Shown here piece by piece: positions 5,733 through 60,884 of a stretch of 64,000 bases of DNA (positions are counted from its first letter, which is position 1; the number at the start of each line of letters is the position of its first letter). The notes under the pieces are model-generated. The model made no database searches. It saw nothing but the letters and a program-made list of their open reading frames with translations, and had not been told where the DNA came from. The translations under genes and the position numbers were made by a program. Source of the DNA: Marsupella aquatica (Eukaryota > Plantae > Marchantiophyta); contig OZ316892.1 in NCBI GenBank assembly GCA_973895155.1, positions 28,420,307 to 28,484,306 of the forward strand, given 5' to 3'.

Positions 5733-6076
5733 TGTTGAGTATAGACGACATTCGCAACTGCAAGCCCATGAACCATCCAACGAACAAGAGTTGACACAGA
5801 GAGATACGTGGTTCACCTCCACATGAGGCTACGTCCACGGGAACACACAATAGTTTTATTGCACTCTAGGCCGACCGGCCATACCAAACATCCACAGCGC
5901 AAGCTCTCACTATCTCTCAACTAGCTCCGTAACAATGAGCCTAAGTTTCACCAGGGTCTGGCATCAGCCCTAGCTTAATACACAACAGCACTACCGCTAA
6001 CATTAGCTAAGTCCTAACCTGAGTTAGCCTAACTGTGGTTAGCTCATGAGTCACAAGACTAGAGCAATATCTAACA
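5733..6076 (-). mobile_element. Solo LTR of a Ty1/Copia family
   Basis: TGTTGAG...CTAACA termini; flanks GCTTG/ACTTG (4/5 TSD); homologous along its length to the Copia LTR at 42285-42627. Confidence 0.85.
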
Positions 6077-27849: not shown

Positions 27850-28316
27850 ACCTTACAAAAGCTTCCTCCTCCCCTTCGAGCTAGCGATGGATGTACTCCG
27901 GGTTGCTGTCCCTCTCGCCATTACTTGGACACTGGTGGCCAAGCAGAAATTAGACGATTTCCCAGTTGTTGTCTCGTGCTTTCTGGTCGGCAGTGCTCTG
28001 TTTCAGTTCGTTGGACGAGGTCGTCGAACCAATTCTCCGCCTTCAGGAGTCAAAGAGGATGTTGTTGAGGTAATTTCTCTGCACTGCATAATCGACAATG
28101 TACAGTGTGGCCTTTGTCAAACTTCGCCCGGTTGGTTATGTCTATTTGTAGTTTGCGATGCCATAATGTCGCTTGTCAGTTCTTCCGGAATCATGAATGG
28201 CTTAAACGTCCTGGCACCTCTCCCTCCGAAATTGAGTCAGGTGGAACAAAGTTGGATACAATCCATTGCCATAGTACTGCGTTTGCAATTTGTTGTCTTA
28301 CCAGGTCAATGACTCC
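27850..28316 (+). pseudogene. Truncated paralogous copy of NLR exon 1/intron 1
   Basis: Aligns with ~29925-30390 (TM segment, GAG|GT donor, CAG|GTCAATGACTC start of the VNDS exon), then homology stops. Confidence 0.7.
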
Positions 28317-35578: not shown

Positions 35579-38500
35579 TTACTCAGATCCAGAAGTACTC
35601 AATTCATGAAACGAAATATCCCTAGATTGATCTCCTAGTGGGGTTCTAGCTGATCCATTCTCTTGTTCTTGCTCTTTCTCTTCTGCCAAAAATTCAGTCA
35701 ACCGGATTTTGATTCGATCTACTGTCTTTTTGTACAATGTATCAGATTTTGTCAACATGAAATTGTAAGCAAAAACAGTAGTTGAAGATAAATCAAGCTC
35801 TTGGTGAAACCATATTGGTTTCAAAGTTCCTTTCCCACGACCACTTTTCTTCTTTTCGTAGTCTAAGACTTCTGGTAAGTACTTGGCTTTCCAAGGATCT
35901 GACCCGGTTTTTGCAGCATGCCATAAAACATAAATCATTTTTGGAATGTTGAACTCGTCGCGCTGGTCAATTCTTTCCACCTTGGCCACCCAAAATGTTT
36001 CCGATTCTTCTCCAGCAACAGAAATATAAGTGTTGACTTCAAGATCCGAAAAGTCTCCTTCCATATTCTCCTTCTCTGCATCTATCTTTCCTTGATTTCG
36101 ATAAGGACCCACGTATATATCTCTGGTAGGTCCGTATACTCTCTCTTCAATTTCCTCTTCATTGACAAGGACTCTGGGAACTTCAGCAGCAACAGCAATC
36201 TCCCCTTGGGAACGTGGCCATTGAAAAGGGAAAATCAATGGTCTTTGATCAAGGAGCAAGGATTTATTCAATTCCCGCTGCTCTTCGAAAAACATTCTCC
36301 ACCAGTTCACTTCCTCTTCTGAGAATAAAGTTTCAACTGCAAGTATTCCCTTTTGAATCTCATTTAACGAATTATCCATCTCCTTCAAAGTCATTCTTGA
36401 AGAACTAGACATATTTGGTTGAGTCCTTGTAACGTTCTTATCCCCCTTTTCTGGCTCCTCTTCCCTCAAAAATTTCACACCTCTGTCAGGTTTCCAAGTT
36501 GAGTTTGTGGAAAACTTCTTCCCCCATTGGGTTGGAACTTGATCTTCCAACTTGTCAAATGCAAATTTGTACTGGTGGTGGAAGGTAACATTTCGAATCC
36601 TTTCAATGACTAAAGGTGGATCTGAGAAGGCATATTGACGGAAATCATATGTTTCCTTTAAAAGAGTGATATTTGGTTGGGGTTGATATGATTCACAAAT
36701 AATATCACATAGGCTTTCGTATGTGAATGCCTTAAACCTTGCTAGTCGTTTAGAAAATCGACTGAACATTTGATCTATTTGGTCGTGTGTGTGTCCAACC
36801 AACAAGAATCCTAGTTTGATTTTCCGAAAAACCTTTCTTCGAATCAACATATGAAGAAGAGTAAATTATTTTTATTTTCTCTACTGGTATTATCAAGTTG
36901 AAGATAGAGAACAGGCGGCAAGCCACCAGGCTTTTCTTCCCATTCGTGAAACACCCTTTGCAGGATTGTGACTGTCAAGTTTCCATCATTATGCAATACA
37001 GGATAATTAAGAAACACTTTTGAAAATAGTGCACCATTGAAAACCAAGCATCCAACAATGTGCATTTGGATCAAACATGTTTCGTCCACCGATTTTGGGG
37101 GCCGCGGCCAATGAGGCAACCTTGTCTTCTTCTGATCCATCCCATCAATGACAACTCCCAAATATTTATCAGGATTTGAAAAACATTTCTTACGATGCTT
37201 CGCGAGTTTCTCACGTTCTTTGGATTGTTGGTCTCTATGTTTTTGTAACATAATCTCCCCTCGCCCTAGAAAAACAACTTGTTAGTTTCTTAAAAAAAAT
37301 AGAAATCATGTGCTTAGCCATATTCTTCAAACAAAAAACTTGTCAAACTTGTAGGTAACTTACTCTTTTCGGTCTCCGAGACAGCTTTGTCCCGAATTGA
37401 TTTGAACTCCTCGCAATCCGCGCAAGCACTGAATCGATTGATTGGAGGAACCTTCACATGACCAAATTCTTGAAGCCAAACTTTCAAGAATTGTCGATAG
37501 GATATTTTTGATGATTCATCAATCCTGGCATAGTTGGAGTCGTAGATCTTCCATACCTCCTGCTTTGAATAATTATCCGGTAAATGTGAAACTTCTTTAT
37601 TTGGCAATATTTCCACACGTGTAGACCTCAAAAAACGACCTAAGCCAACTGACCAAGACTAATCTTTTAACAGATGGAGGGCGTCCAACTGGTTTAGAAT
37701 ATCCTAAGTCTTGGTTGTCTAATTTCAAAATTCTATTTAATCTCTGATTGCCAACGCAAAATATAAGCTTGCTTTTTGACAAATGCTCTTTTGACCAAAC
37801 GTGTAAGATATAGTCTGCCTCCCTCCTCCCTGGGCCCTCACTCCGTGCAAAAGAAGTGGACCCCCCTACGATCGGGCCCTTTTTGTGTTTACCCCTTGTT
37901 ATTTCCATTTTACCATTAAAATTTCCCTTATTACCAGTAATAATTATAATTATTAGTTCAAAATGAATAAAAACTATCCTTCGAGGGTTCACACGTCCTC
38001 CATGTATTAGTTAAGACTGAGGGCCCAGGGTCCCTCCTTCATTTCCGTCTTGCTTTATAAGCCATTGCAAAGATAAAGATCGATCCTGAGATTTTTGCCT
38101 CAAAAATTTAGAACGCGCCTCATGAATTTCTTTCGGAGATAGACTTAGGAGACAATGACACTGACAACAATACTTACTATTTGTTTTCTTGATATCCTCC
38201 TCTTTCAACTTTGTTTCACACAAAGTGGCGTTGCTCATACGTTTGTAATGACTAGATGCCACCGGAACATCATCCTCCTCACTCTCCAAAGACTCGCTAT
38301 CCTTTGATGATGAAATGGTCACCAACATTTCCTTCTGAACATCCCGAGATTCCAGACCTGCAGCCTTTGGAGATGGAGGCTCTTCCTTCACTCTATGCAG
38401 CCTTGGAATACTTGGGCGTATTTCATAAATCCCTCCATTACCGTGTAGGGAACCTTTCAATATTTTCCTACTAAGGGGCCCTCTCCACCAGGTTGGTTTC

Positions 38501-39124
38501 CCTGTTTGAGTTTCCATGACTTGATCCGCTCCCTGCCCCAACACCATGACTCCCAGGAAAAAATGAGGAACACACATTAGAATTCCTTTATGGAATACTT
38601 TTCAATAACACTGGTCGTCTAGTTTCTTCCCTCATCCCCCTGTGAAATGTTTCCAACGTTGGCTTACCAAAGGTTTTACTTTTTGGCATTTGCTTCAGCC
38701 GCTGAACACTTTGGAGACTGCAAAAATCTTTGTCATTTTCCCCACTTAGTGCCTTCTTTGTCTTTCCAAATCCAGTCTTCATGAATTCATGAGACCGTGT
38801 CCCATACATCCGAATAGGCATTGAACCTTCCACATTACTCCCCAATTTGTCCTTTGTTGGTGACAAAGGAGATACAACTTGACGTCCAGGGGGACCAATA
38901 ATCTCCAAGGAGTCAGAGGAGCTCCCTGACCTCTCCATACCACCGACCAATGATTTCTTCCCACTAATTGCAAGTCGTAAAGGAGTACTTTTTAACTTGC
39001 TCATAGGGGTGGGGGGTGGCATATCTAAAATAGTAGTTATTCCAGGGATATATGGGCCAACCACTATGCAGGGGCCATCCGGCAATGAAACATCATCAGA
39101 TACTCCATCTGAATAATTAATCAT
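35579..39124 (-). pseudogene. Sola-like transposase (spliced, frameshifted)
   Basis: YCCQCHC, FSACADC, VIDGMDQKKTRLPH, LQLDNTSRENKNN, FLLVGHTHDQIDQMFS; same motif order as the 11547-15338 transposase. Confidence 0.85.
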
Positions 39125-39396: not shown

Positions 39397-42300
39397 CTAA
39401 GTCACGCCTGATACGTGATTAGTATGTATAACCAAGTAACACGGGGCAGCCCATTCATTTTCACTCGATGTCATTTGGATTTCCTTTGTAAAAGAGTGAA
39501 AAACAATCTCGTTGTCCAATTTCGTGTCGTTTTCCCCGGACTTGGTTACATTGGCCTCTCCACATACTGTATTGCCGTGCAGCACATACAAATTCTTCTG
39601 TCTGCTCCCCTTCAAAATCACTGTCTCTTCCGACATGACTTGAAGTTCACCATCAATTACTCGCCATTGATGACCATTTGTATCCAACACACCGAGTGAA
39701 ATCAAATTCTTACGCATGCCAAGTACAAACCTAACTCCGGACACTATGCGCACAATGCCATCAAACATTTGAATATTTACAGATCGAATACCCTCAACTC
39801 GACAGGAGTGATCATTTCCCATCAAAACTGAACCGTTTGACACAGAATAAGAATTGAAATACTCACGAATGTAACAAAAATGTGAAAGGAGCAAGCACAA
39901 TCAAGAATCCACACATCATTTGCTCTCCTAGATGAAGTGCACAGGGCATACTCTTGGCTTCATAAAACATACTCATCATTGAGTAAATCAGCTTCTCCAT
40001 CAGCACTAGCCACATTGGCTGATGAAGATTCAGCTGCCTTACCCTTACAATCCCTCTTAACGTGACCAACCTTGTGACACTTCCAGCAAACTACTGGCTT
40101 TCTCTTCTGGGACTTCCCCCTTGAAGCAAATCTTGTCCTAGATTTACTTGTTCCCATGCCCTGTGTGTGCTGCTCTGGACGCTTTTGTGACCTCCCACGA
40201 TTCACATTCAAGGCAGCACCAGACGACGATGATGGCTCAGAGGGCATGGTCAATTTCTGCTGCAAGTCATCAGTCAACAGAACTTCATTGTAAGTGATAG
40301 TCTTTTTGTCACAATGAAGCAGCACTCGTGACAATGACTGATACGATGAGGGTAAAGAGCTAAGCAAGTGAAGAGCCTGTCGCTCATCACGCAAATCCTC
40401 CCCCTGATTTTGCAAATCAACGACCAGATCATTAAAACCATCGATATGGTCCTGAATCTTTGCACTTCCCTCCTTCATCTTGAAGCTCATAAGCTTCAAA
40501 GATGTGTAGAGCCGATTCGATAGCTCCTTTTGATGGTACTTTTTCTCCAATGCGGCAAACAATGATGCACAATCGACATGGTCTGCCAAACTGCTTGATA
40601 ACATTAGGCTGAAGATAGAGCATCACGATGCTCACAGCCTGCTCCTACATATCCTGCCAGTCATCATTGTCGACATCATTTGGCTGGTCCTTCAACAATT
40701 TCCCAAGCCCGGTCGCACGAAGTACCCCCTTCACTTGTCGCTCCCACAACAAGTAGTCCGTGCGGCCATCGTATTTCGTAACCTCAAACTTGGGACCTCC
40801 AAGCTTGATTGTCCCCATCCTTTTTCTTGTCACTCGCCGCAATACCGGTGACCACAATTCCACTAGATCTTCCGCTTCCTCCTCTGTTCTCTCCGGTGAC
40901 TCAACAGAACCCTCCTCCAAGTCACTCATGTGAGAAATCAAGAAAAAATGATGTTTTTCTCAACTTCTCAAAAAACTCAAAAGTTATCACCACCACGTAG
41001 CCCACAAGCCTAGCTTTCCAACGCTGAAAACCAGAATCAAAACCGAACTCTGACGTAAAAGTTATTCACTTTTCGGTCGGGGTGGGTAAAACTTGGAATT
41101 CTCCCCCGTTTTGACCACCTCAGAGAATAACCAAAAAGTGAACTAGTACCCAACGTCGGAAATGCAATTCAATTTTTGCACTGCGTTGCCAACCCTGATG
41201 GCTAGCAACTTGCCAAAGACGAACGAAAAAAGTTACCGTTTGGAGGACGGAATCTTTGACGGACGGACACAAAATAGCTCTCTGGTTTTTTGGAATATTC
41301 TACGACCCTTGTACAGGCCCGGTGAGGATTTTGGAAGAGCAATCGAGGGGTTGACACGTGTCCTCGAACCCGCAAAACCCCCTACCACCCTTCGTCGTCG
41401 AAATATGGTCGCGCGATCAGAAAATACACACGGCATAATCTACCCCTCGACACCAACCGCAAGATATCTCACTCGGGTTTTGACAAAATTAAGATCGATA
41501 TAAGAAGCACCCAAAACAAGGAAAGAACAAGGGAGAAACAAATTGATAAAGATGACAGATTTCTCTCAATTGCCATAGCCAATTTCGAATCAGTTTTTCA
41601 AAGAGAAAAAAATGGTACCTTGTCAACAACGAATGTTGAGGAATTGCACTTGGTGTCGTCACCAAATCCAACAAGGTAATTGATTTTTCTTAGCCTTCCT
41701 CTTCGCATCAAGAGCCAATCCCGAACTCAAAACAATCGTTTTGCCTCAATCTCTCCGTTGAGTCAAAAACTTGATGCTTCTCCCTCCGAGTCGATTGCAA
41801 CGACAAGAAACCCCGCTCAGGCAAAAGAGGACTCCATAGCCGGTCAGAAAATCAGAATGCTCCTTTTGCTCGTTGCGACGCACTCGTTACACACTCGACA
41901 ACAAACCATCTACCAAAACGATCAGCTCGTCCCAATCTACAAGCAGAGCTACAACATGCGACGCCTCCTTCGCCGTAGAGCTCACATCGTCGAGAAAACA
42001 AACTCTGGTCCCTCCTCCAAACAACCGTCAAACACGAATGTTGCCGACTTTCTTCACAAAATCTAGAACGATAAAAACTTAGATCTCTCCGCACCACGAG
42101 CTCCGTTCAGCAATTTCTTCACACTGTTAGAAAGCCCTTGCCCTGATCTATCCGTTGAGCCCATAAACTCCAAGTTCCATGCGATGGAACTCCGGGAAAT
42201 CCACCGACACTCAACGCTGGAAAAAACCATCACGAACACCCGTCACGAACACACGTCACCTCCCAGGCATGCTCTCATACCAATTGTTGAGCATAGACGA

Positions 42301-44949: not shown

Positions 44950-47518
44950 ACTGACAGGTCATGCATAAACCAGGATATCATTACAGTATTGCAATAACCA
45001 ATAATCGGGTATTTACAAACGACAGGAAACAGCAAACAGTAACAGGAAACAGAAACCGGTAACAGGAAAATAAGTGATAATTTTTTTGAATGTTTTTTGA
45101 ATATTTTTTTTGAAATTTTTTTTTGCTAGCGCCCAAAGCTAGCCAAAAAATGTTGTAATTTAATTTTTTTGGGAAAATGTGACTTTTTAGAAAATATTTT
45201 GACATGGTTATTTTTCCTAGTAACCGTAACTTTTTGGTGGTAACAGGAAAATTTTTGCTGGTATGAGTAAACTTGTTTCCTGCTTACTGTCATGCCTGCC
45301 ATATTGTGATGAAGAACCCAAAAATAATTGAAGTTTCACTTCCCACTGGTCTGCACAATCCAGGATGTCACTTAGAGTATTGCAATAACGTGACACTAAC
45401 CCTGAGCACCTATGTTTGTACTTGGGGGGTTTTTAAGGTCTAGGGCCTAACCATTAGCACTTATGTTAGCAGGTAGCCAACCTTATGGAACTTAACAAGA
45501 GTTTTTTTTAAGGTTTAGGGCAGGTAGCCACGGTGGCAACCTCATGGAACAAGCTCTCAGGATGGGTGGCATCCTCTCCCGCCCTCCTATTTTGCAGTTT
45601 CTTTGGGGCAGTAAATGCCACGGGACTGTTGGAACTTGGGTCGGCAACTACTTCTAACTCAACCGACCGATATTGCATCCAAGGCTCCACAACATGCCAA
45701 GTCCTCCACCAAGTCCCACTCCAAAAATGGGTTTCACGTGTCTCTGATTGGCACTAGGGGTGGTGTCTCAATTGAGATAAGATCCAGCAGAAGATTGCGT
45801 TCTGAAGACTTTCTTATGGCGGCGGACCTTCTGTGGAGTTCAGTCTCCCGCTTCGTTGTTGCTCAACTGGATCATTCTTCTCTCAATTTTTCCGAGATCT
45901 AGATTCACTAGCCTGATTACCAGTTTCTCAAACGTAAATAGATACAAAGTAAAAAATATCTTGCCATCAAAAGATTCTATGCTATTTAGGCTCATTTGTG
46001 CCCATGCCATCCTCTGTTTAAGTTTAATTTTATTTGGAGTCAATTTCACTTTTCTTATTTTGCCTCCATCCTTGTTCTTTGTCCACCCTCATTTTCATTT
46101 TGTCCTTTTGAAGTCTCATGTTCAGTTTTGTTATGTTCGGGAGTTACGGTTTAGAGTCTTTAATTACTGCGGTAATTACTGCCGAGTAGGAGTCTTCACT
46201 TCACTCTAGACCCCGGTTCAATCTGACGGGCACCTTGACGCCTTGTCGGGCACGTCAAATCGTCAAATGACGGCCCGAAAACATGCAATTTGACGTATAT
46301 TCCTGAAGATTCTCCCGAACGAACCCCGACTTCCCCGGACCTTTCGCGAACACCTCCCGAGCACCCCGGACCTGAACCCGAACTCCCCCTGACCCGAACC
46401 CGGACTCCCGGGCCCTTCCCGGACCCTCCCCGGACCCTCCCGGGCCTTTCCCGGAACCTCGCCGGACCCTCCCCCGAACACTCCCCGGACTCTCGGGCCT
46501 TTCCCGGACCCTCCCCGGACCCCCACCCGAACCCTCCCCGGACCCCCACCCGAACCCTGCCCGGACCCTTCCGGGGCCGGCCGGGGTAAAGGTGGCCCGG
46601 GGGACGGGATTCGGGGAACCGGGGACGGGGGGCATTCGGGGAAGAGGATTCGGGGAACCGGGGAAGGGGGGGCGGGAAAGGGGGGCCGGGATTCGGGGAT
46701 TTGGGGAACGGGGTTCGGGGAACGGGGTTCGGGGAACGAGGTAGGGGGTTCGGGGAAGGGGGTTCGGGTAGGGGGTTCGGGGATGCGGGGAACGGGGTTC
46801 GGGGAACGGGGTGCGGGGTTTGGGGAACGGGGTGCGGGGTTCGGGGACGGGGCTCGGGAATTGGTGGCCGGGGAAGAGTTAGAGGCGGGATTAGGGTTAG
46901 GGGCGCGAGATTAGGGTTAAGGGAGGCGCAATTAGGGTTAGGATCAAAGATTAAGAGTTTTAAGAGAGGATAAGAAGTAGATGATTTAGTATAAGTAGGA
47001 ATAACTAATTCATTTCACTAATCCAAAGTCTCATTGTGTTTCTCTCTCTTGTGGTTTAGCATTAGGGAGAGATCGGAGGGATACATTGGAACTCTTGTAC
47101 GCGCATGCTTTGAGCTCGGCTCGGTGTGCGATAATTCGTACGAGAAGTTCCTTATATCGCCTTAACAACTTTGCATCATTGTTTTGTTTGAAAGTGAACT
47201 ACTTGCGAGTAAAGAGATACCCATGTGCATATGCTTAGAGCTTTGGCTCGGTCTATGACATTTCATATGGGTATCACGATTTCTCGTACATATGTTCACT
47301 TCAAAGATAAACTATTGTGAAGTTATAGATATTACATAACATAGGTTGAAGTAGGGATGTTGACAAATATAAGAATTTGGGAAACTTTCCTGCGCATGCT
47401 TTGAGCTTAGGCCCAGTCTGCGATAATTCAGGAAAGTAACCCATTGTACTATATTTGTTATATTCACAAAATCAAAAGAATCAACCCTTTTATTTTTTTA
47501 CCATTGAGAGTCGTAACA

Positions 47519-50422
47519 ATGTCCGATGAAGAGGATTCGCATGAAACTGGATATCATTCCACTACTCCCAGGCCTGGTCCAACTCGTGTGCAAGAACACC
47601 CTTCAAAACAATCTCCAGTGTGGAGATATTTTGAACGATGTGATGCGCCTTCAACATGTCATGATGTCAATCGTATCTATCGAAGATGCAAGTATTGTTT
47701 AACATACGTTACTCATCATGCAACACGAGCAAAGGCGCATTTGATGGGAAACATCCAAAAAGGGGATGCGCCCCCTTGCATGCAACTCTATGGTGTCGTT
47801 GATTTGGATGCCATCAACATTATGTACAATGTGATAAAGGTTCCACCGACCTTAAAGTACAAACGACGAGATGGAAGTCATATCTTGCGGGATGTGAGAG
47901 GTCGTAGGCCAAGCGTTGGAAGTTCATATTTGCAAGCATCCACACGAGGGTCAAACTATGTTGACATGGATGATACACATGTAAGGGAAGGAGATAGGCC
48001 AGTAAATCTTCCTAACCCAATTATGGATGCCTATCAAATTCCAAATAGAACAAATTTGGATAAGCTTTGGGCGAAAGCTTGCTACACCAGTGGTATTCCA
48101 TTCAATGTTTCAAATAATCCTTTTTTTCGAGAAGCAGTCATAGAGACTTCAAAAGGGATTGTCAATGGTTATTCTCTACCTACGATGCGAAGTTTGCGAT
48201 TGAAATTATTGGAAGACAGCAAGGAGGATCTCACAAAGGACATGACGCAAACTTTAAAGGAGGCAAAACCTTATGGGTATTCTCTTTCTTCAGATGGATG
48301 GGAAAACGTCCGAAGAGAACCTTTGATGAATGTCATGTTGTTGACTTCTAAAGGTGACTTCTTCTTGGATAGTTGGAATGCTGCGCAAGCTGACAAGAAA
48401 GATGGGAAATATCTTGGCGACATGTGGTTGAAATACATTGAGGATATTGGTGCAGATCATATTATTCAAATTGTAACTGATGGAGCACCCGCAAATCGCG
48501 TAGCAGGTTGTGAGGTAGTCATGAAAAGTATCCTCATGTCACTTGGAGCTGGTGTGCTGCCCACGTGTTTAATTTGCTGCTAGAGGATATGTGGTCACAA
48601 GCGTGTAGTGCTAGATGATGCTGGACAGAATCCATTCCAAAAGATTTTTAAACGGTTGAGGTGGATAGTAAAAGCAGTTTCATCATCGCAAAAGCTTTCT
48701 GCAATATTTGCAAGAAAATCTCCTGACAAAAAACTGTTGAATCCAAATGCAACTAGATTTGCGACCAATTTCCTAATGGCACAGAGAGCGTTGGAGCTAA
48801 GAGGAGCTTTACAACAGATGGTCATTGATGATAATTGGCACTCTTATCGTGATAGACTTCCATTGCGACCAAAATCAGCTGGACACATGACGAGGGGAAA
48901 GGCAGACGAACTTAAAATGTGGATACAGCAAGATACATTTTGGGTTGAAGTGAAGGATACAGTTAAATTCTTTACTCCGTTGGTCAAGATGTTGCGAGAA
49001 TTTGATGGTGATTCTCCGCAATCAGGTTGGTTGTATTGGAGTTTGAAAAGAGGGATTGATGTTTTGAAAGCAAGCATGGAGGATTGTCCATTGGTAACAG
49101 AGGTATTGAAACCAAAGATACTAAAAGTGTATTTGGATCGAAAAAAATCTCTTACCACTGATTTCATGCTAGCGGCAGCATATCTCAATCCCCAAATGTT
49201 TTTTGATGAGGACATAGATGTCGCTGGAGATCCAGAACTCTACAGGGGTTTCAGTGAATACATTGCTAGATATTCAGAACAACAGGTGAAGGAGGGGATC
49301 AACCATGATCGCGACGTCAGAGAACTTATTTCTGCCATCCACAGTCAAGCCATTGACGCCCAAAAAGAAAATCCCAACACATCAATAGCGATGGGAGCCG
49401 CCCAATCAAGTATAGGTAATGTCAGTCCAGCAGAGTGGTGGCATGCGTATGGTGCAGATTATAAACATTTGAGAATCCTGGCGCGAAGAATCTTACACCA
49501 AAAAGTGTGCGCATCAGCTTGCGAGCGAAACTGGAGTTCGTATGGATTTATACATTCCAAAAGTCGCAATCGATTGACAAATGATCGAGCAAAAGATTTG
49601 GTGTTTGTATTTACAAACATGAGGGTAGAGAAAGGGCTCACAAATGTTCGAAACCCGCATACGTTTATATATGAACGTTATGACCAAAGAAGAAGAACAA
49701 ATGATGGACCTAGACCTATCTCCATGGAGTTGTGCAGCAATGAAGAGTACGATGCAACACGTGCGGCTCTTGGTGAAGAAGATGTCGAAGATTATGATAC
49801 AATTGATGATGCTGATGAATTGCTACACGGATTTTCACTGGATAAGGATAGTGAGTTCTTGACTCGTATTCCACCAGATACAGACATCACTGCTGCAGAG
49901 GAATGGGAGAATGAAATGGATTTGGAGATGTATCCTACAATTGATGAATCGCAAATCCAAGACGAGGAAGATGCATCACTGGACAGAAACTTTGTGATGC
50001 CTTCCCAACCAAGGTCACCTTGGTCGAACTTTGCGAATGATGTTGACACAAGCAGACCATATTTCAACGAGCAACGCACAGGCACAGTAGGGCATCCGAC
50101 GAATGGAAGGACATCAACCTTTTTTCATGGATACAACAATCATGAAGGTCAAACTTCAAACGACCCACATGCAAACTGGCAACACCATGCAGGTCCACCC
50201 TTGAATGCGTATGCAGGGCCAAGTGTCATGAATCCATATACGTCGAACAGGCCTATTGGCCTTGGTGGGTTTCGAGGAATATCATCATTTCAAGAAACAT
50301 CGCACAATGTTCAGTCACACAATCGTGATCCACTCAGTTGGGGCGACAAACAAGACGAGTGGAATGCGCTTTTGTGCAAAAATCTTAACAACAATGCACG
50401 AAATTTCTCTTCACAGCCTTGA
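47519..50422 (+). CDS. hAT transposase (BED finger, DUF659, C-terminal dimerisation) with one 1-nt frameshift
   Basis: VWRYF..CKYC..HL; SSDGW, IVTDGA, WCAAH (read across the shift at ~48525), ATRFAT, AAYLNP, EWW..YG, ACERNWS, SRNRL. Confidence 0.9.
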
Positions 50423-50699
50423 AGCATCTTTTCATTAGGATAATATCAAGTGTTGCTACTCTTATATTGTCGTATCTGACATAGACAAAATTATAAACAA
50501 TTATATTTTTTGTAACATGATTGTATTGTCTTGCAGTGTGTTTATTATTGTACAATGATTGAATAATTTATTTGTATTTGCATTTGAGAATGTCATAGAG
50601 ACACACCAACGCAACATGTTTTCCAAATCTCCAACACTGACTATTTCAAAGTACCTTGTTGTTGGCCATAGCAGCCATAGTCCATACCAGCCCCCTCCA

Positions 50700-51985
50700 T
50701 TAATTGGTTAGTTCATTTCACTATGCGAAGATTTAGTCCAGCAATAGAGCACCGTCATATTCAATAATAATGAGGTCGAGAGGACCTCATTATTGGACCT
50801 GAGAATGTCATTGCTTGAATAAACCTTCTCGTAATAAAATAAACTTAGTTGAACTTGAAGTTGTAATGAGGGCCCATTTTTGGGGTGGGTGAATGTCGTT
50901 GACCGTAGCAGCTGCACTACTTGAAGTTGGGCAGAGTTTATATGACTATGAGAGAAGTTGTGAAATGAACACATCGCCTACATAATCAGTAACCTTCTCA
51001 TAATCATATAAACCCCGTTCAACTTGAAGTTGTAATGAGGGCCCATTGGTGGCCAAGGAGAGCAATGTCATGATGATGATCAGACACGGTCACGGGGATT
51101 CCGCAAGATCGGTCACCAAATTGATATGCAGACGCAAAATACAGTCACCAATTTCAAGTCAAAGTTCACCCGTTTATATCCTCTCCTGTCCGAATTCCAA
51201 TTCGAGCTTGGACACCCTCTCGTCAGCAGGTCTCCACCCTTTCAGTTGCTCCTCACGCGAACCTCTGGATTCCTCAAACACTATGAATGATGCATTGAAA
51301 TAAAATAGGTTCGAGGATTCTAGAGACTGCTATCTTGGTTTGCGTGAAGAGCAACTGCAATGGTGGAGACCAGCTGACGAGAGGATGTCCAAGCTCGAAT
51401 TGGAATTCGGAAAGGAGAGGATATAAACATGCAATTGTGCGAATTAATGTCATAGGCCGTAGCAGCCGTACTCCAGTAATTGGTCAGTTCATTTCATTAT
51501 CAGAAGATTTATTCAAGCAACGGAGCACGGACATATTCAATAATAACAAAGTCAGGAGGACCTGAAATATTGACCTGAGAGTGCCATTGCTTGAATAAAC
51601 CTTCTCATAATGAAAAAAACTCTGTTCAACTTCAAGTTCTAATCAGGGCCCATTTTTGGGGTAGGCAAATGTAGAGGCGTTGGCCTCGGTTTGCATGCGC
51701 ATGAATGTCATTGGTCGTAGCAGCTACGCTACTTGAAGTTGAACAGAGTTTATTTGAGTACGAGAGAAGTTGTGAAACCAACGGATCGATGACATACTCA
51801 GTAATTTTTTGCTCGAAGGACCTGAAAATTTGACCTGAGAGTGCATTTGCTTTCAGAACTTCTCTCGTACTCAAATAAACTCCGTTCAACTTCAAGTTGT
51901 AATGAGGGCCCATTTTTGCGGTGGGCAAAGGAGTAGGCGTTGGCCTCGGTTCGCATGTGCATGAATGTCATTGGCCGTAGCAGCA
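50700..51985. repeat. Degenerate tandem repeat between convergent hAT genes
   Basis: AACTT(G/C)AAGTTGTAATGAGGGCCCATT recurs at ~50850, 51018, 51626 and 51885 with flanking similarity. Confidence 0.75.
51172..51428. repeat. Long hairpin: 92-bp inverted arms (51172-51263 / 51337-51428)
   Basis: Arms are reverse complements with about seven mismatches; 73-nt loop. Confidence 0.9.
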
Positions 51986-52489
51986 ATAGCGGAAAAAATT
52001 ATGAAAGACAGGAAAAGTGAGTGGACTTAGGTATACATCCTTCTACAAAATCATTCTCAACTTGGGCGGCTAAAACCATTGCGATGTTGACTTTGTTGAA
52101 CTCATTGTGCTACACGATCTCCTTTTGGAAATGATTTCAGAGAAGGATCAGTACCTGAGTCCACTGTGCTACCATCTCTCATCACGTCTATTTTCCTCAT
52201 ACTTGTCCAAAAATATGATTGTGAGCCCGACAATATGCTTCCAAAACCTATGGCTGATTGGAGGATGGAATATTCTTACGAAAATACACATTCTCCAAAA
52301 GTCGACGCCATGCCCCCAATGAAAAATATATGTACTCAACGAGATATGCAATGTAATGTCACTCCAAAATCTCTTTACCAATTACAAGTTGAAAATAATT
52401 GTCAAAGAGGATATGCCGCTTCTATTTTAACAAAATGTCTCTAATAGTAACTACATGAAAATAACATCAAAATGTAGAGACTATTGGTT

Positions 52490-54502
52490 TTAGTTCCTTT
52501 TGTTGTTATTGTCAACAGCTTCTGTTTTCACCTCTGCCTGTTGTTGACGTCGTCGATGGCGCCGAATGGATCGTTGCAAATTTTGCTCATCTATTGATGG
52601 CTGGTTGGCTGCCGCATATTGTTTCCACTCATCGAGTCGACCACTGAATAACAACCTGTCAAATTCCCCATCTGACAAATTATATTCATTGATTGTGAAA
52701 TGTTCAATGGGAGTTTCATCTATTTGCATCGCCGGTATAGTATCTTCAGTCATATCTTCAGTCATATCTTCAGTGTTTTGTTGAGTCTCCATTGATGGCA
52801 TTTGCTTCAACAATCCTCGTTGCTCATACTCGCGTTCATGAAATGGTGTGCGACACCAACATTTTCGGCTTTTCTTCAACCATTTAGACAAGCAAGCATG
52901 ATGCCATATATGACCGCAGGTTCCCAACATGGAAACAGATTCAGGGCCCCAAGGATATAGGCACCAAGTACACTTGTCATCCTTTTCACGAACAAATGCT
53001 GCCATAGTTTCATCCTTTTTCCACTTATCAAAAAACCTATCAATACCTTCCGCGTCAATCTCCACATCTGGAAAAAGGTTGTTGTGCCCTGTAGGATCTA
53101 TGATTTGCATGTTAACAAAATTTGGCGACGATAATTCACCTTGCCCTTTGTTTGACCTCATCCCCAAAGCACCATTGTAAAATTCTTGCACCTCTTCGTG
53201 AAGATTTGATATGATGATTGCTTGCGTTGCAAGTTCACTTTTAAGGTCATTAATGATCTTGTCCTTCTCCTCAAGTCGTGCCAGTTCATTGCATTGACGC
53301 TCTTTTTCAGCAAGTTGTTTTGTCAGCTTATTGATTTCTTCCATCTTGTCAAACAATTGACACTTGTACAACATCACTTCCGAATTGGTCGTCGGCTCGT
53401 TCTGCTTCTTCTCAAGTGATCTCATCTTTATATCAGCTTGTTGCAATTGTGACTTGAACTTTTCGATGCTGCCACATTCACATAGCTCCACTACATACTT
53501 CGTGCGGAGATTTGTCTCAATCACCTCTGCAACATCTGCCCCCAAGCTCTTGCATATGTTGTGCAGGTTGAACTTATCCTTGTTAGCATCAGTAACATTG
53601 TTGTTCTTTGCATGTGGAGTTCTACTCCCAACACCTATGTCAAGGATTGGTTTTTTGGTGTGCGTTGACTCCACATTGGTTGGTGGTGCTGCACGGTCAG
53701 GCATGGAGACTCGAGGAAGTACAGCCGCTTTCCCCTTCTCATGCGCATATCCCTCCCCAGTGTCATCTAGCTTTCTTTTGGATCCCTTGTTGGAAGTCTC
53801 CATTGAAGGGTCCTTTGCAATAGTTGTATTCCTATTCGTTGCAATCGCAACCACTGATGGATGCACCTGATGAGTCAGCTTGCCAACACTGTTTTCCCAA
53901 CGGTAATCCACCTTCCACTTGAGAATGAATTCAGCAATCAGACATCGGATAAAAGGAGGGTAAACGGAACTCATTTTCGTTTGGGCTTTGTGTGGAGCAA
54001 ACTCTCGATATCGTTGCTGCCAATGTGATTTAACACCTGCATGTGTTACTTTGGACATGGTGAATTTTTCTTGCACCCATGATCTTGTTGCCCAAAGATC
54101 CGGATCGTGAAAAACTTGTTGTGCTAATGGCCAAAAGTCTTTCTTTGGCATCAACATCTCCAATTCCTTTGCATTCATGGCCCATTCGTCATGGGGAGGA
54201 TTTACATTGGGCGTTAATATACTCCGTTCATCCTTCATACCCTCATCTTCCCATCTTCTTGTGTTTGGCGCCGGTGTTCCATCAACCTTGGGTTTAGCCT
54301 CATAGTGAATGCCAATGGTTGTAAGATTATCCAACACATTATTACGAAGAGCTTCATCGTCACAATAGGATCCTTGACCATCTTGCATGGTAAGATGTTG
54401 TGTCGTGAACTCTTTGTCTTCATCATCAGAAGACAATTCCCATCGTCCCATGTTTGCGATGTGTACAAAAGGTCTGCGATATTTGACAATGTACAAACAC
54501 AT
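52490..54502 (-). CDS. Coiled-coil + RING-H2-like protein (putative E3 ligase), hAT cargo
   Basis: Open 670-aa ORF; CTWC-x14-CGHIWHHAC-x3-W...CWCR; coiled coil upstream. Confidence 0.75.
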   Translation of the reverse strand: MCLYIVKYRRPFVHIANMGRWELSSDDEDKEFTTQHLTMQDGQGSYCDDEALRNNVLDNLTTIGIHYEAKPKVDGTPAPNTRRWEDEGMKDERSILTPNVNPPHDEWAMNAKELEMLMPKKDFWPLAQQVFHDPDLWATRSWVQEKFTMSKVTHAGVKSHWQQRYREFAPHKAQTKMSSVYPPFIRCLIAEFILKWKVDYRWENSVGKLTHQVHPSVVAIATNRNTTIAKDPSMETSNKGSKRKLDDTGEGYAHEKGKAAVLPRVSMPDRAAPPTNVESTHTKKPILDIGVGSRTPHAKNNNVTDANKDKFNLHNICKSLGADVAEVIETNLRTKYVVELCECGSIEKFKSQLQQADIKMRSLEKKQNEPTTNSEVMLYKCQLFDKMEEINKLTKQLAEKERQCNELARLEEKDKIINDLKSELATQAIIISNLHEEVQEFYNGALGMRSNKGQGELSSPNFVNMQIIDPTGHNNLFPDVEIDAEGIDRFFDKWKKDETMAAFVREKDDKCTWCLYPWGPESVSMLGTCGHIWHHACLSKWLKKSRKCWCRTPFHEREYEQRGLLKQMPSMETQQNTEDMTEDMTEDTIPAMQIDETPIEHFTINEYNLSDGEFDRLLFSGRLDEWKQYAAANQPSIDEQNLQRSIRRHRRRQQQAEVKTEAVDNNNKRN

Positions 54503-54638
54503 TTAGCACAATTTTGGGCATTCACGACAAAGTTTGATAGAATATTATCAACAAAATGCAGAACATTGTAATTGACATACAATGAATAAACATATAATCG
54601 TTAAGGTGACCTTTACAAAATTGTGTAAACCCTAATCT

Positions 54639-56294
54639 CTAATCTCTAAGATATGGACTGTTGTGCAAATGCAATGTGCAATCTGGAAACGTTCGAACTA
54701 TCTTCAAACTCCAAAAAGCACAATCCATTCTTTTCTTGGCATCCGTGGCCATCATTTCACGGATTATGACATCCAATTTGGGGCCATGCACTTGTGCACT
54801 CCAACCCCTCCCCAAAAACCGTGAACCCTTAGACATTCCATCCCAATTCTCTGTCAACAATGTCTCAAAAATATTCCCCAAAGCATATATATCGGTACTT
54901 TCACTAAACTCGACAGGGGTAGGTTGAACAAGCTCCGGAGCCAACTGTGGAAATTGTTTTTGGTATGTTGCTGCTTTTTCTGTTGCTGTGGGCCACATCC
55001 GATTAGCTGGTAATTTGCACTGTGATTTATGCTTAGACAAGCCAAAATCACATAAACCAACATACACCTTAATAGCCACATCGTGCTCGTGATCGAAATG
55101 AAGAAGGATGTTTCCAAAGTGAAGATCACAATGAAATCGATCATGCTCATGCAAGTATTGCAGTGTCTCCAGCAAAGCCAAGGCGATTCCCAACCGGTTC
55201 TCCAACAAGAGTTTCTTCTCCGAAATAAACTTGAAATCAAGGTCCGTCGTGATCTGTGCCTTCCCCTTGCTCTTTGACGATATGCCGCACTTATCAATAA
55301 AGCTACCCAAGTCACCTCCATTATAGTGATCGTAAATAAGTTTTGGCGGATCCTCAATAGTCAACGCAAGAGCTCCAACGATTCCCTTATGATTCAGTCC
55401 TCCCATAAGCACTTCTTGTAATGCGTCAGTTCGTCTCTTATGCTTGTCTCCATCCTTGAACCGCTTTGCGACTAAGGTCACGTTGACGGGAATGAGAGGA
55501 CAATGTAATATACGACAAGTGTATACCTCTCCTTGGATTCCTTTCCCAATGCGACGTGTGTTGTGCACCTGCTCTGGTTTAAGAAAATGGATACTCCTAA
55601 CCTCTGGAACTACACGCGATGGACGTGTTCCTTTTCGAGCACTTTTGATGCTGACATCCCCAAAGTGCACAATCTCGTTAGCATATTTGACATTGCTATT
55701 AGATTTTGCCATTGCCAACTCCTTACTCCACTTCACTAGCAATTCTCTCTTGTGTGTGTACATCCCGGGGTTTCCAAGCAATGTAGTGTCACCCTCTTCC
55801 ACTTTGGTTGCCAAATTATCCCAAACATGCTTCTCCAAGTTGAGTGCCAAATTTTCCAGAAATCCTCCCGGTTTCTCAGTTTCATCTTCAAATGACTTCA
55901 TTTGCTCTCGTGTGAAATTGTCCTCCTTTTGTACACTTTCCCGCATACAACGGGTTATCTCACCAAGAAAGTTCTTGTATCCTTTCTCTCCGTGTCTTGT
56001 GAACTCCCTCTCGAACCCATCCACCCCATACTGTTTCGGTTGAGTGTAGCGATAAAGTATCTCTTTCCATATCGACACTACCACATTGTGTCGAACCTGT
56101 TTTGCCTCTTCGTTTGCCCCCTTCCGTTTTCGTTTCCCGGCCACTTTGCTAGAATTCCTAGCATGTTCGAGAGTGTTTCGAGCGTTCTTCAATGCATCCA
56201 GAGCAACAAGATTCGGCTCATATCCCTCATTCACATGTTTTGTGATCATCTCCAACACTTGCCTATACTCTAAACTAAAATTTTTGATGACCAT
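54639..56294 (-). CDS. Protein kinase, hAT cargo
   Basis: Open 551-aa ORF; GKGIQGEVY, VAKRF, HCDLHFGN, DFG, APE, DIYALG all present. Confidence 0.9.
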   Translation of the reverse strand: MVIKNFSLEYRQVLEMITKHVNEGYEPNLVALDALKNARNTLEHARNSSKVAGKRKRKGANEEAKQVRHNVVVSIWKEILYRYTQPKQYGVDGFEREFTRHGEKGYKNFLGEITRCMRESVQKEDNFTREQMKSFEDETEKPGGFLENLALNLEKHVWDNLATKVEEGDTTLLGNPGMYTHKRELLVKWSKELAMAKSNSNVKYANEIVHFGDVSIKSARKGTRPSRVVPEVRSIHFLKPEQVHNTRRIGKGIQGEVYTCRILHCPLIPVNVTLVAKRFKDGDKHKRRTDALQEVLMGGLNHKGIVGALALTIEDPPKLIYDHYNGGDLGSFIDKCGISSKSKGKAQITTDLDFKFISEKKLLLENRLGIALALLETLQYLHEHDRFHCDLHFGNILLHFDHEHDVAIKVYVGLCDFGLSKHKSQCKLPANRMWPTATEKAATYQKQFPQLAPELVQPTPVEFSESTDIYALGNIFETLLTENWDGMSKGSRFLGRGWSAQVHGPKLDVIIREMMATDAKKRMDCAFWSLKIVRTFPDCTLHLHNSPYLRD

Positions 56295-59198
56295 GTTTTC
56301 CCTTCACAAAAGGAATATGTGAGGGAGGAACAAGATCTTACCGGGATTTAAATAAAATCCTTCTAATAAGGATTCAACGACCAACCTGAAAATTACAAGT
56401 CGTATTGTTATTATCTTTTCCCGGTTTATTTCTCCCATGCATTATGTATTTTTATTGCACACATGATTTTAATTACCTTTCTATATAACAACAATAAAAG
56501 AGAAAGACAACACTTGTGAAATATCGCAGACCGAGTGGACGCTCAAAGCATGCGCACAAAAGTGTTCTTTTCTTTCAAAGTTGTTATATTCCTACTTCGA
56601 CATATGTGATTTGGTGTCTATAACTTAACACTCATTTGTAATTCAAGTAAAAACATTCTCGGCGAATCGTGGTATCCATGCAAAGTATCGCAGACCGAGC
56701 CGAAACTCTAAGCATGCGTACATGGATTCCTCTATCTCCGCAAATGTTTTACTTAATGAACAAAGGAGACTAAATTGTTAAGGTGATATTAAGAAATTCT
56801 TGTACGGAGTATCGCAAACCGAACCGAGGCTCAAAGCGTGCGCGTACAAATGTTTCTTTATATCCCTCCATTTGGCTCTAAGGTTAAGGTTTAAAACACA
56901 AAAAAAACTTAAAAAATCACAAAACAAAACACAAACAAATAAAAACAAACCAAAAATCAAAAATAAAAACCAAAACCAATCACTTACCTCCTCCTCCTCC
57001 TCTTCTCTTCCTCCTCCTCCTCCTCTCCTCCTCCTCCTCTCCTCTCCTCTCCTCCTCCTCTTCCTCCTCTCCTCATCTCCTCCTCTCCTCCTTTCTGCAA
57101 AACCGAAAATGAGGAGGGAGAGGAGGGATCTCCTCCTTTTATCCTCTCCCGAGCCCCCGACCCTTTCCCGGCCGGCCCCATCCTCCAACCCTAAATCGCG
57201 AAACCCTAATTCTCCGAGCCTCAATCCCGAACCCCGAACCGGACCCCGAACCCCGATCCCACCCGGACCCACCCCGGCCTCCCGGACCCGAACCCCACCC
57301 GGACCCCACCCCGAACCCCCACCGAGCGCCTCCGCCCCGGGCCCGGACCCCACCCGAACCCCCCGTACCTCCCGAACCCGAACCCCTCGGACCCGGACCC
57401 GAACCCCACCCGAACCCCCACCCGAACCCCCCGCACCTCCTCCTCCCGGACCCGAGCCGCACCCGGACCCCACCCCGAACCCCCACCGAGCGGACCCGAA
57501 CCCCACCCGGACCCCACCCCGAGCCCCCACCGAGCGCCTCCGCCCCGGACCCGGACCCGATTAGTCACCCGGACCCCCACCCGAACCTCCTCCCGAACCC
57601 AAACCCCAAACCGGACGTTTCCTTTCCCGGACTGCTTCCGAACCCGGGTGCCGGGTTGTCAATTTGCCGCTCTCAAACGCCCAGTTTGACGGGCAAGGTC
57701 AAACCGGGCTCTAGACTTAGTCCCGAGGTTAAGAGTAGACTTTAGTTGGCGCGTTCATAGTATATTTCCCAAACAAATGTAAAGGGAGTACCTTCTCTGC
57801 AATGTTTCCACTTCGTTGTCTACTAATTGCATATTGTTATCTCAATTTGTCCATTTGAACGCTGCAGCTACTTGTTGTCAATTTTGTTCGAGCTCGAGAT
57901 TGATCTCTTGATCTGGCGTCTCGCCAATCTCATGTAAGATTACTTGAGAAACGGAGTATTCAAGCTACATCAAACTTTCACCCATTCACATATGACTCTA
58001 CATTTATGGAGAAGATGATCGACTTACGGAACGTACCTCAAGGTATACATCATGCATGATAGCATCTGACTGGACACTAGAAAAGACTCGACACGACACA
58101 ACAATCGGCCAAGATCTGCGGTTCCAGCGGCAGTAATGAAAGTTTCGACCAACTAGAGGCTTCCCGAACAGTCGACCAACGATTAGCTACTCAACTAGTA
58201 TCGGGTTACCGTTTTCCCGCACTCTTTAGGTCTGCTGCGAGGTGTGATGGAGTCCATGTAACTACGTAGAAGATTTGAAATGCAATGCGAATTAAAAAGA
58301 TCGACGGGGAATTTAACATTGACTAATCGGATTTCTCTGATGTCACCTTCTCGAAAGCTAGTTGAGACGTTTCCTGAAGACAACCTGGAGCCACTGAAGT
58401 ATTTTACTTTCATCGCTGGACTAGTTTGGATCCGTTTGGATCGAAGGCAATATCGGATTGGGTACAACAAATCAATACATTATGTAACAGAGAATGATGG
58501 AGATCAACAATTTCTAGGATGATTACCTTACTAGATATACAAAATAAGCTACATAAAACATTGAAAGACGAACACATGAGTCTAAAACAATCGAGCGGAC
58601 CAACAAGACGTGCAAGAAGGACATTATAGGAATGGAAAGTACCTCAAATTATATTATATGTGACTGGACGGTCACTAGAACAAACTTGGCACAACGACCT
58701 GTCTTATTTCAGTGGTTTCAGCGGCGATACTGAACACTTCAACCAAACAGGCGAACAAACTTGCAGAAAGAGGAGCTCAATACTAAACCGGGATCGTGTA
58801 CCAGACGTGACCAAACTAGTATTTCATGATATCTAGTCCATCGGGAGGTCCCAACAGCACTGGACAGAGGTTGACTGTAGTAGTGCCTTAATTAAGAGAG
58901 ATTCATAAAGAATGACAAATTAATAGCTCAGGCAGCTTGGGATCAAGGTGTGCTCCTAAGTACGTTTGCAATGTTTACTCACGGGCCAAAATAATCAATC
59001 CGATCTAAATCCTTTCTAGATCTTCGCTCTGCTGAGAGAGGTCCAGTTCTGACTCGTCGCAATTAAGAAGTCGTCTGCAGGCCTTGACTCCGATGGAGTA
59101 GAATCCCTGCCCCAGCAAATGTCACGAAAAGAATCTGGGAGACCAAGTCTGGCCAAAGCTTTGCAGCGTTCACCAGTTCACCAGCTGTTCCAGGAGGA

Positions 59199-60884
59199 CT
59201 ACTGACCTCCAACCAGGCCTCCACTAGAAACTGTAGAATATTTTAAGAATGAGGGCATCTCCCAAAGTTCAAACCATCGTAGAGCTTCTCTCTCTACAAC
59301 AAGGTCGAGTCGATCACCAAGAAGTTTCTGGCAAACCCAGGTTGCGACGGATTTTAATTTTTTTCCCATCAAAGCTCCCTCGTGAATGTCGGCGATTATT
59401 CTCTGAAGTATTTCTGCAGTATAAAGGGTTCTATATACTGTCTGTGCCTCGACAATTTTACTCATTGACATGCCCTTATTTAAGTCTGCCATATACATAT
59501 AGGGATCAAAACCACCTCTGAAAGGGTCGAATGAAGTACTCTGACACAGTTTATGCATGGCTATTAAAGCACGGAGGAAAGATGCTGCAAGCCAGCCTTT
59601 CCGTAGGGTACATTTGGTGTGTGGTGTTTCTTCTGACGATGCCACTGGGTATTCTTCGACTTGAAATGCCAAGTCCGCCAAATCGTGAAGTACTATTCGG
59701 ACATTTTGGTCGTCAGGTGTGCCACCCCTGCTTTGTCCCATCTAACATTTTCATCTCCATCTCGTCGTACTGCTGTCCAAGTGAGCGTTCAAATGTGCAT
59801 CGACAACACTCACACCTGAAAGGTCCACAAAGTACAGCAGTTCAATAATTCGTCCCCCAATGCTATACGACAGCGCGCCGTTCACGACTCGCTCTACATG
59901 TACAAATTACATCGTCCACTTTGAGTAGTCGTACCTGAAGCCAAGCGTTTGACAGTACCCGTCACGGACACCAAGAGGCCAAAATATGTCGAAGCAGGGA
60001 ACAGTGAGCTCTTCTCCGGCTGCAATGTCTGTGGCAGCGTGAATGAACATCGCCTGCCCGACTCGCCTTAGATGGCAGTTAGGCGCACATGAGTGTTTCA
60101 TGTGGGACACTAGGAGCCATACTCCCCACCACTCATGCGTTTCAACCTGCCGCGGTTTGTCCGGGATAAAGCCCTTCTCCGTGGTGCAGATTGCATTGTT
60201 TGCAACAATGTCGCCAACAATGTCCTTCAGGAGCCTCGTGAGTTCATCAGGTCTTCTTCGGTGTGACGAACTCTCCTCAACTCCCTCCCCAACTGTCTGG
60301 TCAGGGCATGACGCGATTTTGCTCATGCAGTCGTTGGCAAACGATTCAGGGCTCCTATCCTGGAATAACATGAAGAATGGTTAGCCAAAATTGCGCACCT
60401 TAAAGTCGAATCACTTGTCCGTAATTGGTTCACTTCCTCGACGTAGGACGGACAGATGCAATGAGAAATTCAATTTGTGAATGAACCAATTATGGTAACA
60501 GAGGTTGTGACTACATACAGGTTTACAGTCTGGTCCATCCGGGTGGGCCAGAGAATATCTGAGCCTCGTCGTGAGATCCTCCTTGACTACCGAAAGCATT
60601 GAAGGACATGGCAGCGCATCGGAACTGTACGCGCGACATGGAACGACGGCGTTGTCGACAATAAGAAGATTACCTTTCGCAGCAGGATCGTTCAAGAATA
60701 TCCCGGAACCTATCTTCTCGGAAGAATCCTGGACAAGTCCGAGTGAACGAAGGACTTGCTGGAACCGGTCCGCCGTTATAATCTCCAATGTACCAGACAT
60801 GAATGCCAAAAAGCTATTCTGATTATGACATAGTCTTTCTGTAATTTCAGTGTCAGGTACACTTAGTAAAATGGTTCGAAGCAT
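59199..60884 (-). CDS. SET-domain protein (SMYD-like), spliced; 3' end uncertain
   Basis: GSGIFL, GVWLLVSHMKHSCAPNC, DIAAGEELTV, and post-SET GFR|CECCRC across intron 59816-59934. Confidence 0.75.

Follow-up and report, generated by a model that had tools for sequence, protein, structure and literature searches.

A hAT-type DNA transposon of Marsupella aquatica with a protein kinase and a putative RING-H2 ubiquitin ligase as probable accessory genes

Introduction

Elements of the hAT type are normally described with a transposase only. In the literature searched, one kinase-bearing DNA transposon was found, the TBE element of the ciliate Oxytricha, whose zinc-finger/kinase open reading frame (ORF) is under purifying selection and whose kinase, in the accessible sections of the reports, is left without an assigned function (PMC4724952; bioRxiv 10.1101/2025.03.17.643836). 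Here, we describe an 11.5-kb hAT-type DNA transposon that carries genes for a protein kinase and a RING-H2 protein, very probably as accessory genes of its own. It is located in a stretch of 64,000 nucleotides of the liverwort Marsupella aquatica (GenBank assembly GCA_973895155.1, contig OZ316892.1, positions 28,420,307 to 28,484,306 of the forward strand), which is referred to in its entirety as the window and from whose first nucleotide all positions are counted. TBE is the closest precedent and was set beside the window element by description, the likeness being a kinase ORF under selection on a DNA transposon. However, TBE elements are Tc1/mariner transposons of ciliates with telomeric terminal inverted repeats (TIRs) and combine kinase and zinc finger in one protein, whereas the window element is a hAT transposon of a plant with separate kinase and RING-H2 genes and predicted structured-RNA leaders. 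It exhibits hAT domains and non-telomeric ends instead of a Tc1/mariner transposase and TIRs of telomeric repeats, and is TBE-like in its working at most.

Other described systems share single features with this locus. Maize MuDR, a member of the Mutator superfamily, contains long, near-identical TIRs and two convergent genes that are driven from these homologous terminal regions. Convergent genes behind homologous regions are also found in the window element, where, however, these regions are internal modules with 72% identity, 0.85 kb away from the ends. The lentiviral TAR/Tat system with P-TEFb combines a bulged hairpin near the 5' end of a gene, a basic-patch protein and a kinase. The likeness of the window hairpins to TAR was noted by eye only and consists of a 2-nt bulge starting with U and followed by G-C; in contrast to TAR, they show no match to the TAR family of Rfam and occur in three copies per leader. 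VANDAL elements belong to the Mutator-like superfamily. Their VANC protein in Arabidopsis and miR820 are precedents for transposon anti-silencing (PMC6719617). According to the accessible part of this source, VANDAL/VANC resembles the window element in combining an element-encoded accessory protein with a short repeated motif confined to the element, yet VANC uses a tandem DNA motif, whereas the window element has a motif with the covariation of a single-stranded structure and encodes a kinase and a RING protein. The miR820 CACTA transposons of rice are, likewise, DNA transposons with a microRNA-like hairpin, while the window element has five clustered predicted hairpins that belong to no Rfam family. 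The same 2019 review, in the sections available, lists three transposon-encoded anti-silencing systems, all from flowering plants and none of them a kinase (PMC6719617), and the word “kinase” is absent from the available main text of a 2026 review on gene capture (PMC13317346). Among the matches listed, the literature searched contained no kinase- or RING-bearing hAT element, nor this kinase clade or hairpin motif; Repbase-type entries or supplements of bryophyte genome papers could hold one.

The locus provides a plant system with candidates for a cis-element (the covarying RNA motif), for enzymes and for small RNAs, which makes the role of a transposon kinase testable in Marchantia. It also leads to a sizeable unannotated kinase clade, whose members may be treated as host genes in bryophyte annotations.

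Element boundaries and transposase

The element comprises 11,497 bp (46212-57708) and is flanked on both sides by a perfect 8-bp target-site duplication (TSD), CTCTAGAC, at 46204-46211 and 57709-57716. This duplication agrees with NTCTAGAN, the target of several hAT families, whose ends are given as YARNG in the accessible part of the source (PMC3014272). The ends set by the TSD read CCCGG instead, and moving them 5 bp outward would yield TAGAC/TAGAG but abolish the duplication. The two 13-bp TIRs are imperfect: the left one (46212-46224, plus strand), whose CCCGG start is atypical for hAT, matches the right one (57696-57708, minus strand) in 10 of 13 letters, a pattern that is weak when taken alone (at least 2 matches in 10 of 100 shuffles). 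Read depth climbs at the left element end, from bin 46135-46561 onward. Repeat analysis further revealed GC-rich subterminal arrays in the left arm (46364-46875) and the right arm (57147-57600), the former partly inverted relative to the latter. The kinase and RING ORFs are enclosed by these ends and converge with the transposase, an arrangement inside TIRs that the original prediction had proposed and that the TIRs and TSDs between 46204 and 57716 confirm.

The transposase gene (47519-50422, plus strand) contains DUF659 (E 1.7e-20) and Dimer_Tnp_hAT (E 6.7e-11) domains, and a WCAAH motif is readable in a shifted frame. The uninterrupted ORF that is required of an autonomous hAT copy is not present here: relative to other contigs, the gene is short by 1 base at 48523 and by 2 bases at 48589. 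The missing bases reflect decay of the gene or, alternatively, an error of the assembly within short repeats, and it is likely the family, rather than this copy, that is autonomous.

Kinase and RING-H2 genes

The kinase gene (54639-56294, minus strand) encodes a non-RD protein kinase of 551 aa in one uninterrupted ORF; the protein has a helical N-terminal domain and carries a basic patch (GKRKRK). Its set of active-kinase features is complete and includes the Gly loop, the beta3 Lys, the alphaC Glu, the HxD, DFG and APE motifs, the Asp of subdomain IX and the Arg of subdomain XI (G250/G252/G255, K277, E294, H388, D390, N395, D416, E454, D468, and R522). These residues are invariant in the covering rows of an 11-row alignment, with the exception of one Ser at E454, and the basic patch is kept in 10 of the 11 kinases, i.e., in those that retain that region. 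The sequence fits an active eukaryotic protein kinase, for which phosphotransfer is predicted from these residues. The catalytic motifs had been correctly recognized as complete in the original prediction; its description of the HCDLHFGN loop as atypical is replaced by that of a family-wide non-RD loop, as relatives show H[C/N]DL and HCD is present in unrelated kinases too. In some contigs, one base is inserted in the kinase ORF and another is deleted 7 bp away (55669-55676), so that the frame is kept.

The RING gene (52490-54502, minus strand) encodes a 670-aa protein with a conserved domain at residues ~95-225, a long predicted helix or coiled coil at ~320-445 and a RING-H2 domain at 511-550. 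All eight ligands of the C3H2C3 type (C511, C514, C529, H531, H534, C537, C548, and C550) and the Trp that contacts the E2 are present, and the ligand set is preserved in the relatives P0022 and P0020. The last ligand pair is CxC and not CxxC, and the Pfam zf-RING_2 score is 26.7 bits vs. a cut-off of 27.3. The best match in the PDB is RNF165/Arkadia (E 8.7e-6). The protein is ubiquitin-ligase-like, with a RING-H2 domain, and a putative E3 enzyme. Its conserved N-terminal domain corresponds to no Pfam family and yielded only unnamed leads in atlas searches; beyond kinase and RING, Pfam identified no families in the two cargo proteins. Two relatives were found among 7,525 candidates, a Calypogeia fissa gene model without a complete RING and a Logan cluster whose full-length member is 57% identical over 644 aa. 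In some contigs, the RING ORF lacks 3 bases at 53638 without a change of frame.

Both ORFs are colinear end to end with homologous proteins and are, therefore, read as intronless, in line with the two long, uninterrupted ORFs 136 bp apart that had been noticed before. Telo-boxes have a role in promoters. The spacer (54503-54638, minus strand) contains a telo-box directly after the kinase stop, and the RING gene may thus be driven by a promoter of its own. As homologues begin at Met18 of the RING ORF (54451), the real gap may be 187 bp. AlphaFold models were poor, with a mean pLDDT of 52.8 for the kinase and 36.4 for the RING protein; the confident portion of the kinase model is the N-terminal helical part (residues ~60-200). 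Fold searches with the models returned generic kinases only (Z of at most 7.3) and nothing viral at E 0.001, and atlas searches with the kinase likewise led to generic kinases.

Copies and selection

Six sequencing runs from four studies match the stretch in whole or in part, and in four of these runs 0.78-0.87 of its words are present; no RNA run was among those listed, a result without bearing on expression. Four of the runs were aligned to the window. One run, X6, was left out of the counts as it fits mostly in part (0.87 runs on unlike). In total, 2,204 contigs of X2 (organism A, which may be the source) and 7,359 contigs of X4 (organism B) were placed on the window, in all identity bands. 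Depth, which is no copy number, was compared with a reference flank just outside the left end. Over the two cargo ORFs it amounted to 1,045-5,735 vs. 155-328 in X2 and to 7,913-62,952 vs. 633-802 in X4, and the depth of the transposase was raised together with that of the RING and kinase genes in both runs. Leader, transposase, RING and kinase pieces were also present in X5, where they are more divergent. In each cargo ORF, one variant was common to up to 19 contigs. Many cargo-bearing copies are likely to exist in the two organisms, for which these data are strong evidence rather than a census. The genes are not confined to this copy, as the original prediction had allowed they might be; full-length relatives exist, and many contigs in X2 and X4 carry them.

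In comparisons with the kinases of two metagenome contigs, L001 and L002, the window kinase showed a pN of 0.26-0.33 and a saturated pS of 0.73-0.75, corresponding to a dN of 0.32-0.44 and a dS of at least 2.5. Among the variants listed in the two ORFs (the best 40 of 1,722 rows), 7 of 13 were synonymous vs. 27% expected (p=0.036). Judged from these substitutions, the kinase is under purifying selection, and the earlier suggestion that the intact ORFs reflect selection is supported, the genes being under long-term selection. The L002 kinase carries 2 stops, like decaying transposon copies. Taken together, the kinase and RING genes are very probably genuine, selected accessory genes of the element.

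Leader modules with predicted bulged hairpins

Two leader modules and a set of central hairpins did not figure in the original prediction. The transposase leader (47075-47443, plus strand) contains three copies of a bulged hairpin (47086-47151, 47212-47278, and 47377-47443), as does the kinase leader (56504-56869, minus strand; copies at 56792-56858, 56668-56734, and 56504-56570). The two leaders are inverted homologues with 72% identity over 359 bp, and the motif occurs six times in the 64 kb, every time within the leaders, where 0.64 occurrences would be expected. The metagenome contig L001 exhibits a three-motif module with the same spacing upstream of its distant kinase, the first copy being cut by the contig end; the identity of this leader to the window leaders is 69% over 149 bp. 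As L001 (5.8 kb) contains no hAT gene, the conservation of the leader argues for a kinase-leader pair rather than a kinase-transposase pair. Directly after the L001 kinase, on the same strand and in the position of the RING gene in the window, lies a DUF6729 gene with a likely intron (2584-5521, plus strand). Its DDE-like residues were seen by eye only, and it may be a transposase, other cargo or a nested insertion.

In its predicted fold, the motif has a lower stem that varies, then a bulge of 6 nt on the 3' side and a stem of 4 bp; after a 1x1 loop follow 3 bp with wobbles, a bulge of 2 nt, another 4-bp stem and a short loop. Across eight motif copies, pairing is kept in 93% of the cells, and both partners have changed in 12 of 20 pairs; none of 500 shuffles matched this, while slid controls reached 25-46% pairing. 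The sense strand has 30 G:U cells vs. 2 A:C cells, pointing to a strand-specific hairpin. In the full leader, 26 of 99 pairs are compensatory among three sequences. The motif has no match in Rfam at the gathering score, TAR included, and 0 exact matches in viral contigs. An RNA model of the motif recovered only its 8 training copies and no independent one, the next best hit scoring 13.5 bits.

Central hairpins

Between the transposase and RING genes, at 50.7-51.9 kb, five hairpins resembling microRNA (miRNA) precursors were predicted, all of which fold better on the minus strand. The z scores of this strand, obtained with 40 shuffles, are -9.0 for H1 (50706-50845), -6.1 for H2 (50915-51035), -17.6 for H3 (51170-51430), -6.1 for H4 (51484-51625), and -12.6 for H5 (51730-51900). 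H1, H2, H4, and H5 are paralogues that keep a 25-bp stem, in which 7 of 25 pairs are compensatory among the four. H3 is unrelated to them and forms a near-perfect inverted repeat with 92-bp arms that are 92% complementary; a 38-codon open frame in one arm gave no Pfam and no convincing PDB match. Comparable stability is rare: of 376 windows tiled over the 64 kb, in a scheme that skips half of the sequence, 2 reach the same cut-off. In Rfam, no family reached the threshold, the best being MIR7533 with 85 vs. 230 bits. As stable, strand-specific hairpins of less than 300 nt, they have the form of plant MIRNA precursors, and their predicted fold makes them candidates for this role. The region is shallower in X2 (depth 174-1,449), and its presence may vary among copies. 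Two hairpin targets considered at 29.3 and 29.9 kb of the window were rejected as being at chance level.

Kinase relatives

A word search identified eight relatives of the kinase among 7,992 scored candidates, full-length and with 47-73% identity over the alignment, mostly on short metagenome or Logan contigs. Two of the kinase relatives were labelled as belonging to a Bacilli metagenome-assembled genome; their contigs are only 2-3 kb long and they were not accepted as bacterial. A profile search returned 19 proteins at E 1e-30 or better, 65 at 1e-10 and 1,083 at 1e-3. A sister family (73 matches among 4,856 candidates) aligns from residue 72 on, indicating that the N-terminal domain is shared as well. 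A midpoint-rooted tree was built from 54 kinase domains with a recognizable catalytic loop, excluding fragments and most hits; it has a thin outgroup and contains four viral rows. The window kinase falls into an 8-row family (support 100/96) within a 27-row clade (98/97) that includes two Riccia proteins and is separate from the receptor-like kinase rows and from the four viral rows. The named eukaryotes in this clade are represented by liverwort proteins only. Named relatives of the cargo stand as gene models in assemblies of Riccia and Calypogeia, which, like the nearby hydrolase-NB-ARC gene, fits a liverwort host.

Discussion

We tentatively favor, at a little less than an even chance, the explanation that the element carries a regulatory kit which keeps it expressed against host silencing and acts via the leader hairpins. 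Both arms would likely be transcribed inward, and on the nascent RNA the leader hairpins would likely be bound by a protein that the element itself encodes, the best candidate being the basic, helical N-terminal domain of the kinase. Brought to the element, the kinase would phosphorylate transcription or chromatin factors of the host there, while the RING protein would mark a repressor with ubiquitin or drive turnover of the transposase. Small RNAs against host genes would come from the central hairpins, which are located downstream of the RING gene on its strand. Since kinase and leader are found together in both the window and L001, a second copy of the leader precedes the transposase and the motif is RNA-like, a family-specific expression circuit is the simplest reading. 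The regulatory or anti-silencing role that the original prediction assigned to the cargo is, in this respect, plausible.

Several observations weigh against this explanation. The kinase and ligase activities, the hairpin binding and the transcripts it invokes are all predictions from sequence, and neither a substrate nor a target was found. In the other copies, the linkage of cargo and transposase is deduced from their jointly raised depth, and none of the contigs listed bridges the two. The covariation in the leaders is based on three to eight related sequences from which the structures themselves were derived, and conversion between the arms can mimic it; on the sense strand, two of the six single copies, both short kinase-side ones, fold no better than shuffles (z -0.77 and -0.16). 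With their 10-11 upstream ATGs and their splice-like sites, the leaders could be intronic, or act on translation instead of transcription. Matches to the central hairpins elsewhere in the window are at chance (2 loci vs. 0-3 in 30 shuffles). The gene behind the L001 kinase, that of DUF6729, showed no RING match, and an obligate form of the kinase and E3 module first proposed is doubtful. In TBE, according to the available sections, the accessory proteins left DNA binding of the transposase in E. coli unchanged, and their role is still described as unknown (bioRxiv 10.1101/2025.03.17.643836).

A limited but real chance remains with a role of the kinase and RING protein as helpers of transposition. 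Their substrates would then be the transposase or host factors for repair and the cell cycle, and the leader hairpins would control only translation or splicing. The shared leader implies that the kinase is co-expressed with the transposase, the many upstream ATGs suggest translational control, and the TBE zinc-finger/kinase ORF, itself under purifying selection, has been proposed, in the parts accessible, to act in transposition or repair. However, the leader accompanies the kinase on the L001 contig, where no hAT gene is present. Returning to regulation through the leader hairpins, a stricter version appears to us unlikely: a Tat/TAR-like switch in one protein, in which the kinase would bind the hairpins on its own nascent RNAs and phosphorylate the host transcription machinery for its own family only. 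The kinase-leader cassette would then move between unrelated bryophyte DNA transposons as part of a large unannotated kinase clade, backed by the E3 ligase and a miRNA cluster.

Selfish drive or addiction by these genes, in a plant whose life cycle is dominated by the haploid phase, is improbable; the kinase would be the toxin and the RING protein or the hairpin RNAs the antidote, so that spores or cells without the element would be killed. The analogy is provided by the fungal Spok kinase genes, which reside on large mobile elements. An intact kinase beside a ubiquitin-ligase-like gene under selection and a kinase clade that is wide and fast-diverging would fit this scenario, but at high copy number the loss of an antidote is unlikely to matter, the hairpins match neither the kinase nor the RING mRNA, and the L001 kinase lacks a RING partner. 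Recent capture of host genes as neutral, Pack-type cargo, intact because the element is young, has an equally low probability. Relatives annotated as genes in Riccia and Calypogeia and a decayed copy such as the L002 kinase would be in agreement with it, and a near-identical host locus may exist. This view is at odds with intronless, full-length relatives of 47-73% identity and saturated synonymous sites, with a non-coding leader that is conserved before a distant kinase and duplicated before the transposase, and with the separation of the kinase clade from the receptor-like kinases.

A giant virus or other non-plant donor is very improbable: the genes are intronless and closely spaced and the best solved-structure sequence match of the kinase is the amoebal kinase Roco4 (weak, E 4.8e-8), but the searches of viral contigs confirmed the kinase family in none of 116 and none of 53 candidate stretches and the RING protein in none of 7, the eight weak, generic viral kinase matches have E 2e-5 or worse with four of them placed elsewhere in the tree, and GTDB genomes gave one weak match among 95 stretches. 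The viral origin considered in the original prediction is accordingly not borne out, as no close relative was found in viral contigs and, in the phylogeny it had called for, the kinase does not nest among the four viral rows and belongs to a clade with liverwort members. In these comparisons, whose outgroup is thin, nothing points to a virus.

Other features of the window

A SET-domain gene is present in pieces 1.5 kb to the right of the element (59199-60884, minus strand; PF00856, E 4.4e-8). To the left of it, a second DNA transposon with DUF7869 ORFs, split at ~36850, occupies 35579-39124 (minus strand), and a remnant of a Copia gag with zinc knuckle is located at 39397-40604 (minus strand). 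Hydrolase-NB-ARC genes are linked to liverworts, and pieces of such a gene, resembling an alpha/beta-hydrolase, NB-ARC (E 1.1e-25), leucine-rich repeats (LRRs) and tetratricopeptide repeats (TPRs), follow each other in series at 30314-34762 (plus strand), consistent with a hydrolase-type NLR with a TPR tail. Upstream of this NLR lies a diverged pair of decayed, coding-like segments (27800-28320 and 29900-30370).

A repeat-flanked region at 18238-22205 (plus strand) contains ORFs, one piece of which (21090-22205) resembles an N6/N4 DNA methyltransferase, with a PF01555 match that falls just short of the cut-off (E 1.3e-5). Opposite these ORFs, across arrays of 66- and 34-bp repeats at 15.5-16.3 kb, an En/Spm-like ORF is found at 13103-14578 (weak Transposase_23), and the region may represent a transposon-borne DNA methyltransferase. 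A near-identical tandem duplication with a period of 2,057 bp extends over 22448-26562 and contains arrays of a 22-bp GTACA repeat, which are present at 11.0-11.3 kb as well.

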